Assembly: GCA_963664705.1 (NCBI GenBank)
Contig: OY761556.1
Coordinates: 6,830,880-6,894,879, forward strand
Reading direction: 5' to 3'
From: Acidobacteriota bacterium
GTDB taxonomy: Bacteria; Acidobacteriota; UBA6911
Length of the DNA: 64,000 bases
In this document: piece after piece, positions 16,228 through 43,350 of the stretch
Position numbering within the stretch: the stretch's first letter is position 1
How the letters are laid out: the number at the start of each line of letters is the position of its first letter
Position numbers and translations under genes: made by a program
Notes under the pieces: generated by a model
What the model saw: only the letters and a program-made list of their open reading frames with translations
Databases searched by the model: none
Told to the model about the DNA's origin: nothing

Positions 16228-17136
16228 TTACTTTGGGAGAGGATCAGATGATGGCCAAAACCGCGCGGTTGATATCGGCAGGGGATGAAAGAAAGCGTTA
16301 ATGGAATGAATCTGTCCCCCCCATACTTTAAAAGCTTCATAGGTTACAAGTGAATTTCCTTGCCCGTAGGCGTCACCAGTGTGCCCAAAGTTCATCCACA
16401 AAAGTACTACTCCGTTTTGTTCATCCACGGATGCAACGCTGGCAATAATGCCCGGATGCAGAGTGATTCTCTGGGAATACATGCCGCAATCGGGACGGCC
16501 GCATCCCACGCCCGCTGTAATCACGCCGTTTTCAACGCGATAGATTTCCGGAGCAAAGGGAGTTCCGGCATCTGAGAAATTACCGATGCGCAGGCCTTCG
16601 GTATAGGTCAGCGCAGTTTTGATCATCGATTCTCTTGACTGTCTTTTGGCAGGAGGCACGGGATCATTCATTCCCATGATAGGTTTTCCCAACTCCCTCG
16701 GGGGGAATTTTGAGTCGGGCGTGATTCGCTGAACCAATGTCTCAATGCCGGCGATCCTCTTTCCTTTGAGATAAAGCAGCACAGAATAAAGAACCTGGTT
16801 TTTGTCTTCGTAGACTAATATGTGCGTGGCAGCGATCTGCCTTTTTGCATCCAAATAATCCTGCCGGAATTGCCCTTTTGCAGTCACTGTTTTCCAAAGA
16901 CCCTCACCCAAATCAATTTCCTTTCCATCCTCGGTAAAGCGAAATTTGTCGGTCAATAGGAACTTTGAATGATCGTGTGCCACAAGCGCATCAATATACA
17001 GTGTTATCATGCCAGTCATACAGGTGCGATTGCAGGATTCCACCGCGGCCGATGTCTGCGACACGCCTGCCGGAATTGCTATAACGAACATGGCAGCAAC
17101 GATTATTGATATAGAAAAATTACGTCGACGAATCAT
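16228..17136 (-). CDS. Uncharacterised exported protein (paralog 2 of 9173)
   Basis: CNRTCM...YIDALVAHD...RFTEDG...GEGLWKT, RVENG; GAGG RBS before ATG 17136. Confidence 0.75.
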   Translation of the reverse strand: MIRRRNFSISIIVAAMFVIAIPAGVSQTSAAVESCNRTCMTGMITLYIDALVAHDHSKFLLTDKFRFTEDGKEIDLGEGLWKTVTAKGQFRQDYLDAKRQIAATHILVYEDKNQVLYSVLLYLKGKRIAGIETLVQRITPDSKFPPRELGKPIMGMNDPVPPAKRQSRESMIKTALTYTEGLRIGNFSDAGTPFAPEIYRVENGVITAGVGCGRPDCGMYSQRITLHPGIIASVASVDEQNGVVLLWMNFGHTGDAYGQGNSLVTYEAFKVWGGQIHSINAFFHPLPISTARFWPSSDPLPK

Positions 17137-31668: not shown

Positions 31669-31986
31669 CGCCACTGGGAGCGAAAGATATTTCCGCTCCT
31701 CCCCATGACCTAAAGTTGAACATTGGAGAGGGGTTCACCGTTTCTATCGCCCCGCCAGGGCTCTTTCCCGCGCTTATCTCTACCGGGGGTTCGCTTCGCT
31801 TCACCCCCGGCTACTTTCTGACCGCCCCTTCGGGGCTGATTTGATGGAGATTCCAAGTTCCTCGGGCAAATAGTATGCGGCATCAGCCGGGACGGCGGTG
31901 CTCCCAGCGCTCTCGTCAAGCCACAGGTTTTTCCACTCGGCTTTGCTGGTGGAGAAGCTCACTCCCGGCTGTTTTCTGGCGCGCCT
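31669..31986. repeat. REP-like cluster, left part (continues at 33752)
   Basis: Same GGGGGTTCGCTTCGCTTCACCCCCGGCTAC units; the last unit is cut at GCGCCT. Confidence 0.85.
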
Positions 31987-32149
31987 ATGATTGTGCAACA
32001 TGGCCTGTTCAGGTAAAAAGGAAAAGAAAAACTTGGAGTTTGGGTGTGGAAACCCGGAAGGAGCCCGGAGGGCGACCGAAGGGTTTCTACTCCCAAACTC
32101 CAAGCGCGGATGCACTCGGATAGCACAGTCCTACATATTGAAGGCGCCC

Positions 32150-32968
32150 ATGATCAATAACACCAACCTTTCTCACTGGAACAGACTCCAAGCGAAGAGC
32201 CTTGACGCTCAATTTGTTAATGAGATGATTACCGGCCTTAACTGCTCTCCTTTCGAGGCGGAAGCTATTGTAGAGAAAGTTCATGAGGTTTACGTGCCGC
32301 TGTTTCAGACGGCGCAGGGACTTAAGCCGGGTCAGATTCAAGTGGCCGTGATCGATGCTTCGGTAGCGCCTAATGTGCCACTGGCAAAAGCCAAGCAGAG
32401 ACTGGTAACCCTGACCCTTCATGCAGGTACCGAAGATATCGAGACTCGAAAAAGGGGATCCGTACCAGCTCTTCGTCAGAAACGATTGTGCCGCATGTGC
32501 CAAGAAGCATTTCAGCAAGGGGGATTGTTGACCTTGGAGGATTTGGCCAATCTGTTCAATTGCGGCGTCCGCACTCTGGTGAACGACCTGGCGGCCTTGC
32601 GCAAACAGAGCATTGTGCCTCCTCTGCGCTCTACGACCAAGGATATGGGCCGCGCCATCACCCATCGCCAACTGATTATCACGCTCTGGATGCAAGGGCT
32701 TGAGTACTCCGAAATCGCCCGTAAGACCAATCACACCATCGACTCCGTAGCCAACTACGTGGATAAGTTTAAACGCTGTGCAGCCCTGTTTGTTTCTGGA
32801 TTTGACGTGGATACAGTTGCTCTGATGGTAAAGCTTTCAACGCCTCTGACCAAGGAATTTCAGCGTATCCACTCCGCTTGCCACGGGACTCCTCACCGTC
32901 TTCGGGAATTGGAAGATTTCCTCAAAAAAAACCGCATACCAAGCCTGCGCGGGAGGAAACGGTCATGA
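32150..32968 (+). CDS. DUF1670-like protein A
   Basis: LKPGQI, VTLTL, EAFQQGGLLTLEDLA, DMGRAITHR, HTIDSVANY motifs. Confidence 0.85.
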   Translation: MINNTNLSHWNRLQAKSLDAQFVNEMITGLNCSPFEAEAIVEKVHEVYVPLFQTAQGLKPGQIQVAVIDASVAPNVPLAKAKQRLVTLTLHAGTEDIETRKRGSVPALRQKRLCRMCQEAFQQGGLLTLEDLANLFNCGVRTLVNDLAALRKQSIVPPLRSTTKDMGRAITHRQLIITLWMQGLEYSEIARKTNHTIDSVANYVDKFKRCAALFVSGFDVDTVALMVKLSTPLTKEFQRIHSACHGTPHRLRELEDFLKKNRIPSLRGRKRS

Positions 32969-33750
32969 TTGCCCAATCTGAGGCTCAAAAACAATTCGGC
33001 TCTGCGCGGAAGCGCTTCCTGCAGTCTTCTATTGAAAATTTTCTGGACCAGGAGTTCCCTCGCACCTTCGGACCAGTAATTCGCGAGAAAATGGCAGAAA
33101 AGATTGTGGCGCTTGTCGACCAACAACTACCTCCCAAGGATCATCTGCGCCCTGGACAGTGTGTTTGGAATGCCGTATCCATTGCGACCCGGCCTGACAG
33201 CCCCAACTGTCGTCTTGTCCCCATAGTCTTGACGCTTGTGGATTCTTCGGATGCCGAGCAACTGGCTCGCGGAACACCCATGTCCAGAATCGCCCAAACG
33301 TCCATCGCTCGGATTTGCCGTGAAGCCTTTGAACAAGGAGCCTTGCTCTCGATGCGCGATATTGGCCTCTTAGTCTGGCGAGATAACGCCCACATCTCGC
33401 AGGTCCGGAAAAAGTGGGAGGCTGAACAGCAAACATCGTTGCCTCATGTCGGAACTATTCAAGATTTCGGCTCATGCATCACTCATAAGTCGGTCATTGT
33501 GCGCAAGGTTGTTTATGAAGGGAAAGATCCCCGTCGTGCTGCAGATGAAACCAAGCACTCGCAGAGAGCCGTCGATCGTTACCTAAAAGACTTTCATCGA
33601 GTAAGAACGTGCTTCGAACATATCCAAGATGTTGAATTCGTTATCAAAACAACAGGTCTATCCAGGCAGCTGGTAAACCAATATGTCAGAATCATCATGG
33701 AAAATGAGAAAACGTTTCCTAAAGAGAACTTGACAGGCAAGATTGCTTAA
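32965..33750 (+). CDS. DUF1670-like protein B
   Basis: LRPGQC, IVLTL, EAFEQGALLSMRDI, DFGSCITHK, HSQRAVDRY; ATGA overlap with A and GGAGG RBS. Confidence 0.85.
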   Translation: MIAQSEAQKQFGSARKRFLQSSIENFLDQEFPRTFGPVIREKMAEKIVALVDQQLPPKDHLRPGQCVWNAVSIATRPDSPNCRLVPIVLTLVDSSDAEQLARGTPMSRIAQTSIARICREAFEQGALLSMRDIGLLVWRDNAHISQVRKKWEAEQQTSLPHVGTIQDFGSCITHKSVIVRKVVYEGKDPRRAADETKHSQRAVDRYLKDFHRVRTCFEHIQDVEFVIKTTGLSRQLVNQYVRIIMENEKTFPKENLTGKIA

Positions 33751-33751
33751 A

Positions 33752-33930
33752 CTCCGGCGCTTAGTGCAGATGGAACAAAGATCCAGCGCCGGAGGCGCGA
33801 AAGATAGTAGCCCCGGGCGAGCTTGCGAGCCCGGGGTTAAATTAGGGGTTCAAAGAGCCCTGCAAGGGCGAAAGAACGGCCATGGCAAAAAGGTAAATGG
33901 CCTTGGGAGCGACGACGGCGCCCCCAGTGG
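33752..33930. repeat. REP-like cluster, right part
   Basis: Colinear with the uninterrupted cluster at about 43100-43240. Confidence 0.8.
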
Positions 33931-39879: not shown

Positions 39880-40112
39880 CGCCGCCGTCCCGGCTAATGC
39901 TGCATGATAATTGTTCTGAGCTCTGCGATGCCAGCGAGGCAACAGGCCCGGAGGGCCGAAAGCGAGTAGCCAGGGGTGAAGCGCAGCGAACCCCTGGGAA
40001 GATAAGTGCGAAAAAGAGCCCTGAAAGGGCGAAAGATCGGAATTCTGCCGCCCCTTCAGGGCTTGTTACTGATTTAATCCAATCCAGGGGTTCGCTACTC
40101 TCACCCCTGGCT
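39880..40112. repeat. REP-like cluster, left part (continues at 41653-41800)
   Basis: GTAGCCAGGGGTGAAGCGCAGCGAACCCCTGG and GCCCTGAAAGGGC units; last unit cut at CCCCTGGCT. Confidence 0.85.
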
Positions 40113-40203
40113 GATATGGAGTGATCGGTCAAGTACAATCAATCCGTTCCTTGTTCGTTCATTTTGGTTTTCTTCGGTTCATAAATAAATCAGCCAGTAA
40201 AAA

Positions 40204-40386
40204 GAACAGGGGATCGAGTTGGCAACAGCGACGATAATCAATCTGATATTCGCGGGTCGATAAGCACGCATGACAACTGATTCATCGGGAGCGGCCTCAC
40301 TCTACTTCCGTGGATTCTGGTTTCCCATACCAACATAGCCAGGTCGAGGTTTCTCCTTTCGAAGCCTGGAACTCGATCTCCTGTTC
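40204..40386 (-). ncRNA. Bridge RNA / seekRNA of the IS1111-type element
   Basis: 17-bp enclosing stem with one mismatch; segments CCUGGCUA and AAGUAG match the two target strands, and AUAUCAGA matches the donor junction. Confidence 0.8.
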
Positions 40387-40458
40387 CGTTCACTAACCGA
40401 ATGTTTCCGTTATTAATCCATTGAAGAACAAAATAGCTGCAAGAGCTGGTGCCTTATG

Positions 40459-41553
40459 TCATGCAACACGACCGATAGCCCAGATAAATCCTGCCAATTC
40501 TCGACTTACCGCAACCGCGATCTTTTGTCTTTCTTTCCCTCGGTTGAGCATGCGTCGGAATTTTTGATTCAATCGCTTATCGCAACGTTGTGCAATCTCG
40601 ATAACTTCTGCCGGCAAACACTCTCGTCGTTTCTTGAGAGTTTTGCCAGCTACTGAAGAATGACGGTAGTGCCAGGCGCTTTCGATCAGCACCCTACGTA
40701 GGTGGCTGTTTCCCGTTTTGGTTATCCTTCCCCGTCTTTCAAGTTCACCTGAGCTGCTTTCCGAAGGCACCACCCCAATAGCGGCCATAAACGAAGGCGC
40801 ATCAACGAACCGTCTTAAATCGAGCGCTTCTGCGATAATCGTCATCGCCGTCAGAACCTGAACACCTTTTAGCGCCATCAAATAGCTGACTCGCTTTTGA
40901 TAGTTCGGCTGTTTTGCAACTTCCTCGATTTTTTCCTGGAATTTTTTCAACCGCTCCGTCTGTTGCTCAAGCGCCTGTCGATATTCCTCCAGTACTGTTT
41001 GATCCCCATCATCCTCAAACACAAGGCTCTTAATCCATTTTAGGTGCCCAAGCGACCAGTTCTTGCCCTGCGGATATTTCAATCCACGTCGCATCAGAAA
41101 CCGTGCTAATCGATGCCGTGCTCGCTGCTGGTCTTCCAATGCGTCTTCTCGCGCGCGCACTAGATCTCGCAGACTTTCCTGTTCTTTTTGCGGGATCACA
41201 ATACATGTTAGTTCTCCCGCTCGGTACAATTTGCCCAGGGCTTTCGCATCCAGCTTATCCGTTTTTACTTTTTTCCCCGCTCGTCTCGGGGTCAACGAAG
41301 GGGCCGCAACCTCACAAGAAATCCCATGTTTGGCCAAATAGCGCTGCAAATAGTATCCATTAACGCCCGCTTCGTAGACGCACCGTACATCATCTTCAAA
41401 TGCCCTTAGCTTTTTCGCTAATCGCCCCAGCCCCGTACTGTCGTTTGATACAACAAGTTCTTCTCGTGGGTTACTTTCCTGCCCGCGAAAAACTGCGACG
41501 TTTATCTTTTTTGCTGAATCATCCATCCCTACCCAAGTGATACAATCTGCCAT
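40459..41553 (-). CDS. IS110 family DEDD recombinase/transposase
   Basis: VGMD, YEAG, KTDKLDA (DEDD) and GVVPSESSSG...GRITKTGN (catalytic Ser domain). Confidence 0.96.
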   Translation of the reverse strand: MADCITWVGMDDSAKKINVAVFRGQESNPREELVVSNDSTGLGRLAKKLRAFEDDVRCVYEAGVNGYYLQRYLAKHGISCEVAAPSLTPRRAGKKVKTDKLDAKALGKLYRAGELTCIVIPQKEQESLRDLVRAREDALEDQQRARHRLARFLMRRGLKYPQGKNWSLGHLKWIKSLVFEDDGDQTVLEEYRQALEQQTERLKKFQEKIEEVAKQPNYQKRVSYLMALKGVQVLTAMTIIAEALDLRRFVDAPSFMAAIGVVPSESSSGELERRGRITKTGNSHLRRVLIESAWHYRHSSVAGKTLKKRRECLPAEVIEIAQRCDKRLNQKFRRMLNRGKERQKIAVAVSRELAGFIWAIGRVA

Positions 41554-41799
41554 GATCGGTCTCCTCATGTTTTATGGCTCTGCAGCTTTGTCACCACGAC
41601 TTCAGCTGTAACCCACGATATTACATGCTAGAGACCGATCACTCCATTATGTCTACTTGCTTTCGGCCCTCCGGGCCTGTTGCTCCACTCGCGTCGCAAG
41701 GCTCAGAACAATTCATTGGCGGCATTAACCGTCCCGGTGGGCACCCGCGACGTTGAGGCGGCTGCGCCTTGACGGCGAGACGCCGGCGGTCACGGTGCT

Positions 41800-43019: not shown

Positions 43020-43350
43020 AATTTGGGAGCGCTGCGCTGTGGAAGCGGCTGCGCTCTTGCCGGCGTCTTGCCCGCTTTTTTTTCGGCGTTTTTCTTTCGG
43101 TCCTTCAGGGCTCTTTGAGCTCCGAATGCAACCCCGGGCTCACAAGCTCGCCCAGGGCTGCTAGCTTTTGCGCCTTCGGCGCTTGGTTTAGGTGGAACAA
43201 AAATCCAGGCCCGGAGGGCCGAAAGCAAGTAGCCAGGGGTGAGCGGAGCGAACCCCTGGTAGAATAGTTGGAAAAACAGGAGCCCTGAAGGGGCGAAAGA
43301 ACGGCAATTGCAAAAAAGTAAATTGCATTGTGCCAGACGGCTGCGCTCCC
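43020..43350. repeat. REP-like cluster (uninterrupted)
   Basis: Contains GCGCCTTCGGCGC and AAGTAGCCAGGGG, intact counterparts of both interrupted units. Confidence 0.85.

Follow-up and report, generated by a model that had tools for sequence, protein, structure and literature searches.

The stretch of DNA analysed here, referred to as the window, comprises 64,000 nucleotides from an Acidobacteriota bacterium (GenBank assembly GCA_963664705.1, contig OY761556.1, forward-strand positions 6,830,880 to 6,894,879). Near its middle lies a 1,765-bp segment (31987–33751, + strand) that is almost certainly a mobile element, and which spans 31986–33751 if the T of the left CT is counted as its first base. 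Unless stated otherwise, the features described below lie on the same strand. The segment contains two overlapping open reading frames (ORFs), ORF A (32150–32968, 272 aa) and ORF B (32965–33750, 261 aa), the latter in the −1 frame relative to the former with an ATGA overlap, and these are preceded by a 73-nt leader hairpin (32032–32104; −50 kcal/mol). To the left, the element is bordered by the left half of a target palindrome (GCGCC) and the left CT (31981–31986, the CT occupying 31985–31986); to the right, by a second CT, the remainder of a 3-nt loop and the right palindrome arm GGCGC (33752–33760).

An earlier note on this DNA had proposed a precise insertion into a repetitive extragenic palindromic (REP) sequence, and the junctions are as it wrote them, with GCGCC-T at 31981–31986, the element at 31987–33751 and CT-CCGGCGCT at 33752–33761. 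Excision of the element plus one CT restores the reverse complement of 33785–33799, and the rebuilt site aligns through the junction with five intact genomic repeats, among them a colinear REP cluster near window 43150–43300 (71% identity, 154 columns). A search for other copies with the same boundaries, suggested in that note, yielded three identical copies in the genome, each 1,765 bp long with zero differences and flanked by CT...CT; this multi-copy state and the exact ends are direct observations. Each copy interrupts a GCGCC-TNN-GGCGC palindrome of a dispersed repeat, and another 42 unoccupied palindromes of this type are present in the genome. The expectation of empty sites was borne out at the paralogous level, as the rebuilt sites of the three copies align through the junction with 2, 9 and 5 intact genomic repeats; no orthologous empty allele was found in another strain. 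Contigs from the same sample contained one 1,773-bp element unitig with exactly three right-hand flanks (three runs), at a depth of 14.2 compared to 5.9–8.3 and of 49.2 compared to 12.9–15.1. The assembly was probably built from the same runs, so that the unitig serves as a check on it and adds no independent support. The intact neighbouring repeat unit outside the element (33785–33836, − strand) matches the Rfam motif Acido-Lenti-1 (44.8 bits; gathering score 37), which is listed for Acidobacteria and Lentisphaerae in its source paper (PMC2864571). A second Acido-Lenti-1-like unit lies upstream of the element (window 31783–31837) and scores 32.8 bits, under the gathering score.

The element is a real, recently active insertion sequence (IS) of an undescribed family. 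Homologs of A (878) and B (798) were collected, and among the 120 homologs listed for each protein, most reside on contigs of 1–3 kb, like collapsed repeats. We examined 92 loci, made up of the complete set of 12 from representative genomes together with the best 80 of 423 metagenome loci. Wherever 300 nt or more of sequence was available for a second gene, B followed A (85 of 85 loci). Scanning with a motif located the left end in 77 of the 92 loci and both ends in 59, at a distance of 1,650–1,862 bp; since the ends were located with the motif of our own element, all figures for end conservation are conditional on that motif. The boundaries of the relatives are sharp and conserved, and both-ended elements of this length leave no room for another transposase. 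On blurred boundaries and on residence inside a larger transposase-bearing element, either of which would have spoken against the proposal, the outcome favours the earlier note. In one genome (G018, loci L196–L198), three differently flanked left ends, each located where a contig stops, represent an assembler-collapsed multi-copy relative that was missed by the gene search.

According to record labels, the family loci come from several bacterial phyla and a methanogen. Four of 61 relatives carried the family, as did 4 of 401 genomes from the element's own phylum, 30 of 301 from the archaeal phylum of the methanogen and 5 of 301 from another phylum, each count including its centre genome. Plasmid, phage and viral collections yielded no member. 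One locus (L156, G1039:C223) contains a lone DUF1670 gene between long inverted copies of a large hairpin, with no partner gene detected in the locus.

The two ends of the element carry the halves of a predicted sigma-70 promoter, with a −35 hexamer TTGACA at the right end (33730–33735) and a −10 hexamer TATGAT at the left junction (31986–31991). As the earlier note had pointed out, the promoter arises only upon joining of the ends, which places the two hexamers 17 bp apart, and the TTGACA-17-TATGAT pattern occurs 0 times in the 6.9-Mb linear genome. The conservation of these hexamers in relatives, a check outlined in the same note, was apparent at both sides: TATGAT or TATAAT is found at 67 of 71 distinct left junctions (position 1 taken as T) and the −35 hexamer at 56 of 65 distinct right ends, and 45 of 58 two-ended related loci, counted without de-duplication, have a perfect TTGACA-17-TAT(G/A)AT. 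Junction promoters mark circular intermediates in IS110 and IS1111 (PMC11187229, PMC11208160), and the arrangement of the ends suggests that this element, too, probably moves via a circle. The circular form was not seen in contigs, which drop rare forms.

In addition to the promoter halves, each end contains a 10-bp near-palindromic box, GCAACATGGC on the left (31995–32004) and GCAAGATTGC on the right (33737–33746), separated from their respective ends by 8 bp (left) and 5 bp (right); the left box is likely a protein-binding site. An imperfect subterminal inverted repeat is built around these boxes, with its left arm at 31990–32012 and its right arm at 33729–33751 (15 of 23 matches with a 3-bp offset). 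Terminal inverted repeats, which the earlier note described as absent, are indeed lacking (2 of 23 matches), and the subterminal repeat is to be added to its account. A looser form of the box is found near the ends of distant, mostly archaeal gene pairs, upstream in 13 of 22 (shuffle mean 1.0, maximum 6) and downstream in 9 of 18 (shuffle mean 0.5, maximum 2), counts in which several loci are kin and for which the box pattern was written after inspection of the data. A separate 41-bp mini-element (L195; G003:C56, ~16600–16640) consists of the left and right ends only, flanked by CT...CT, within a palindrome with an 8-bp stem.

Target statistics were derived from 58 distinct two-ended sites, three of our own and 55 related, with four rows dropped. 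Joining the flanks of these sites restores a palindrome whose loop is 3 nt long. The pairing reaches 4.83/6 at this loop size, compared to a mean of 3.98 and a maximum of 4.26 when partners were shuffled in 1000 rounds, and no other loop size exceeded 2.91. One relative (51% protein identity) occupies a palindrome with 23-bp arms and a quite different sequence, which suggests that the symmetry or shape of the target matters; CCC...GGG is common to most targets, showing that a sequence preference is also present. Judging from the junctions, the element enters short palindromes where their 3-nt loop begins on the 5′ side.

The CT core read by the earlier note is present at both junctions here; across relatives, only its first base is always matched. 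The left/right dinucleotides were CT/CT at 44 sites, TT/TT at seven, CT/CA at three, CT/CG at two, and CA/CA and GT/GT at one each. The first core base is equal on the left and right at 58 of 58 sites, eight of them with a base other than C, and a TT core arises at several separate places on the tree, indicating that the first base follows the target. On the left side the second core base is T at 57 of 58 sites, and it is unequal between the sides five times, always with T on the left and a non-T base on the right (one of the five is possibly chimeric). The simplest reading of this pattern is that the T would be both the first base of the element and the first base of its −10 hexamer, with one base only being duplicated or matched. 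Alternatively, the crossover may involve a 2-bp overlap with biased repair.

Both ORFs match DUF1670 (PF07900; E-values of 4e-40 and 1e-43, with scores of 137.8 and 149.5 bits compared to a Pfam cut-off of 25), in agreement with their earlier description as DUF1670-like paralogs, and they share 27% identity over 213 columns. Pfam assigns no function to this family, and apart from DUF1670, A and B match only weak helix-turn-helix (HTH) models. No DDE, DEDD, HUH or serine-recombinase motif had been noticed in the initial inspection, and no transposase family was matched here either. A Pfam and NCBIfam scan of both proteins and 83 aligned members gave no match to PF01548 or a related DEDD (RuvC-like) model, no DDE Pfam domain matched A or B, with two weak single-member matches across the family (E 0.004–0.006), and the HUH motif is absent among conserved columns, with no Y1_Tnp match for the DUF1670 proteins. 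Strong purifying selection was observed on both genes (median dN/dS of 0.072 for each; unsaturated comparisons in 42 of 80 for A and 15 of 80 for B).

Across 81 A and 80 B distinct sequences, down to ~23% identity, the residues R115, Q123, D165, G167, H172, H195 and Y203 (A numbering) are invariant, and position 173 is always R or K. The invariant residues listed for A also include R160, and those for B are R116, Q124, D167, G169, H174, K175, H198 and Y206. AlphaFold models of A (pLDDT 78.8, pTM 0.46) and B (pLDDT 88.5, pTM 0.60) predict helices, a beta-hairpin, a winged HTH and additional HTH units. None of the fold searches yielded a significant match; topoisomerase VI A and vaccinia topoisomerase IB turned up solely in a group of HTH entries with tied scores. 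The tyrosine recombinases encoded in the same genome likewise showed no significant similarity, with the His-Tyr spacing off by one, and the PF00589 tyrosine-recombinase profile gave an hhalign probability of 0.4%. Four adjacent pairs of tyrosine-recombinase genes, possibly representing a RIT-like element, occur in this genome (G000) on C1 near 2927115, 5024574, 5618423 and 5622760.

Near the end of ORF A, an A8 run (32924–32931) with an in-phase A_AAA_AAC forms a predicted −1 frameshift or slippage site. Of 80 distinct pairs, 75 have B in the −1 frame relative to A and 73 contain an in-phase A_AAA_AAN heptamer within the stretch that is open in both frames, compared to 9 of 956 background windows. 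This frame layout and slippery heptamer make it likely that frameshifting or slippage produces an A-B fusion of ~530 aa.

The best explanation, in which we place moderate confidence, is that this is a recently active, likely autonomous, palindrome-targeting IS that likely moves via a circle made by its two DUF1670 proteins. A and B, or the frameshifted A-B fusion, would bind the 10-bp box at each end through their HTH units. The ends would then be joined into a circle, creating the sigma-70 promoter and causing a burst of expression, and the circle junction would be exchanged into a palindrome through one shared crossover base, with no longer duplication and in one orientation. A and B are very probably needed for this movement, and they likely carry the catalytic site. 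The chemistry would most likely proceed through a phosphotyrosine intermediate on Y203/Y206, aided by R115, D165, H172, R/K173 and H195. Tyrosine chemistry is favoured by the invariant residues R, H, R/K, H and Y at the C-terminal HTH along with the near absence of duplication; a tyrosine nucleophile in A and B is nevertheless a proposal that we put forward tentatively, if seriously.

Likeness to the tyrosine recombinases (XerCD/Int) lies in this invariant R...H-(R/K)...H...Y set at the C-terminal HTH and in a spacing of G and H near that of the LRH...G...GH motif. The DUF1670 proteins differ in having no sequence or profile similarity to them, no HxxR and a His-Tyr spacing of 8 rather than 9, and the element's overlap of 1–2 bp differs from their 6–8 bp. 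With greater hesitation, we suggest that DUF1670 may represent a new recombinase class, in which HTH units gained a catalytic tyrosine and the protein is made as a frameshifted two-domain fusion. Such an enzyme would depend neither on a fixed sequence nor on an RNA guide but on the shape of a DNA hairpin or palindrome, into which it would insert a circle with a single shared base, and it would define an IS family across many bacterial phyla and archaea.

An unlikely alternative, though together with the host-enzyme scheme below one of the two rivals that deserve serious weight, retains A and B as the enzyme and replaces the tyrosine adduct with metal-dependent cleavage and strand transfer via acidic and His residues (D96, E119, D165, H172). 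D96 and E119 are near-invariant (160 and 159 of 161 sequences, respectively), D165 and H172 are invariant, and the A6C −1 frameshift layout resembles that of IS1 and IS3, which are DDE elements. Against this, the models are predicted to be mostly helical with a single beta-hairpin and a short third strand, DDE-family models found nothing beyond the two weak matches mentioned above, and the junctions here show a match of 1–2 bp at most.

Rather improbable is a scheme in which the role of A and B is limited to binding and pairing the ends, and the cutting falls to a host enzyme that they recruit, such as a XerCD-type recombinase, a topoisomerase or a hairpin-processing nuclease. Every recognisable part of A and B is an HTH DNA-binding unit and no catalytic family matched them, both of which would fit such a division of labour. 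However, the same ends and gene pair are found in records labelled as coming from several bacterial phyla and a methanogen, and in the archaeal-phylum genomes counted above (30 of 301), so a host partner would need to be shared across domains, and the invariant polar R, D, H, H and Y in both paralogs appear more like an active site than like a transcription factor.

A very improbable view takes the unit to be a non-autonomous passenger that a host IS110 recombinase or Y1/RAYT transposase mobilises in trans, with DUF1670 as cargo. The genome does carry 11 IS110-family copies, most of which occupy the repeat family that the element also uses, together with a single match to a Y1 transposase, and the CT core, junction promoter and repeat target agree with IS621 (PMC11208160). 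However, the host IS110 uses the spacer between hairpins rather than the loop, and it has no word of at least 10 nt in common with the element junction. The ends and boxes travel with the DUF1670 pair across distant hosts, both genes are strongly purifying-selected, and the core is not fixed as CT. One of the IS110-family copies lies in the window itself (~40110–41658, − strand), and 10 of the 11 have Acido-Lenti-1-type flanks, such that two unrelated elements use one host repeat.

The leader hairpin has no Rfam match, and its near-invariant tip (32063–32073) resembles the target. The tip is present in 62 of 77 leaders, and some lineages lack the hairpin. In two Bacteroidota relatives (L021, L023) the long leader hairpin is a different one and bears a GAAGCGTAGCGAAG-type tip in place of the target-like one, and in the two copies of G009 (L199, L200), both of them truncated, the tip is inverted in one. 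That an RNA guide of the bridge or seek type, made from this very stable, target-like hairpin downstream of the junction promoter, picks the target is the least probable of the alternatives, as the tip is unchanged and does not covary while targets differ (L047 and L056, for example, by inspection), is missing in 15 of the 77 leaders, including both-ended elements with leaders of 75–81 nt, and is inverted in one G009 copy.

Among known systems, IS110/IS1111 elements (IS621, ISEc11, ISEc21) are alike in their circle-junction sigma-70 promoter, here recognised by sequence only, in their REP targets and in their site- and orientation-specific insertion; IS621 shares a short core, also CT, and IS1111 shares subterminal inverted repeats (PMC11208160, PMC11187229). 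The present element is unlike them in having no DEDD/RuvC domain by Pfam and NCBIfam, two DUF1670 genes rather than one recombinase, no covarying guide RNA with a leader that can be as short as 75 nt, and a first core base that follows the target. Our best reading is that it would work like IS110/IS1111 in forming a circle, in its junction promoter and in its use of a repeat as target; no guide RNA was found, and the chemistry is likely tyrosine-based.

Overlapping ORFs in the 0 and −1 frames and the A_AAA_AAN slippery site are shared with IS1 and IS3. IS3 also has circle-junction promoters. In both IS1 and IS3 the termini are inverted repeats, a longer stretch of target is duplicated and the second ORF encodes a DDE domain. 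The element differs from these in that its two ORFs are paralogs of one HTH-rich family, its insertion is hairpin-specific, no DDE Pfam match was found in it, and its termini agree poorly (the 2 of 23 matches above). Judged by the defining enzyme, it belongs to neither IS110/IS1111 nor IS1/IS3. IS200/IS605 and RAYT elements resemble it in hairpin-linked, duplication-free insertion, in a tyrosine nucleophile (proposed here) and in REP association; they are set apart by the lack of an HUH motif or Y1_Tnp match in our element and by the position of its hairpin, which is in the target and not at the element ends. Strand-biased circularizing elements share circle formation, a feature of theirs that would apply here as well, and differ in their set of four core genes and in their size, with a median of 15.7 kb (PMC10214605).

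A literature search yielded no account of this element, and neither "DUF1670" nor "PF07900" appeared in any searched paper; ISfinder, subscription journals and supplements lay outside that search, so that an entry may exist in a database. The insertion sequences known so far rely on a small number of chemistries (DDE, DEDD, HUH, serine and tyrosine). A widespread, selected and site-specific element outside the known families points to either an undescribed DNA-joining enzyme or an unknown way of borrowing a host enzyme. IS finders based on transposases are likely to miss this type of element. With two short genes, ends of ~25 bp and a palindromic target, the element is small, and if active, it could serve as a compact, near-scarless integration tool. 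DUF1670, for its part, would gain a function.
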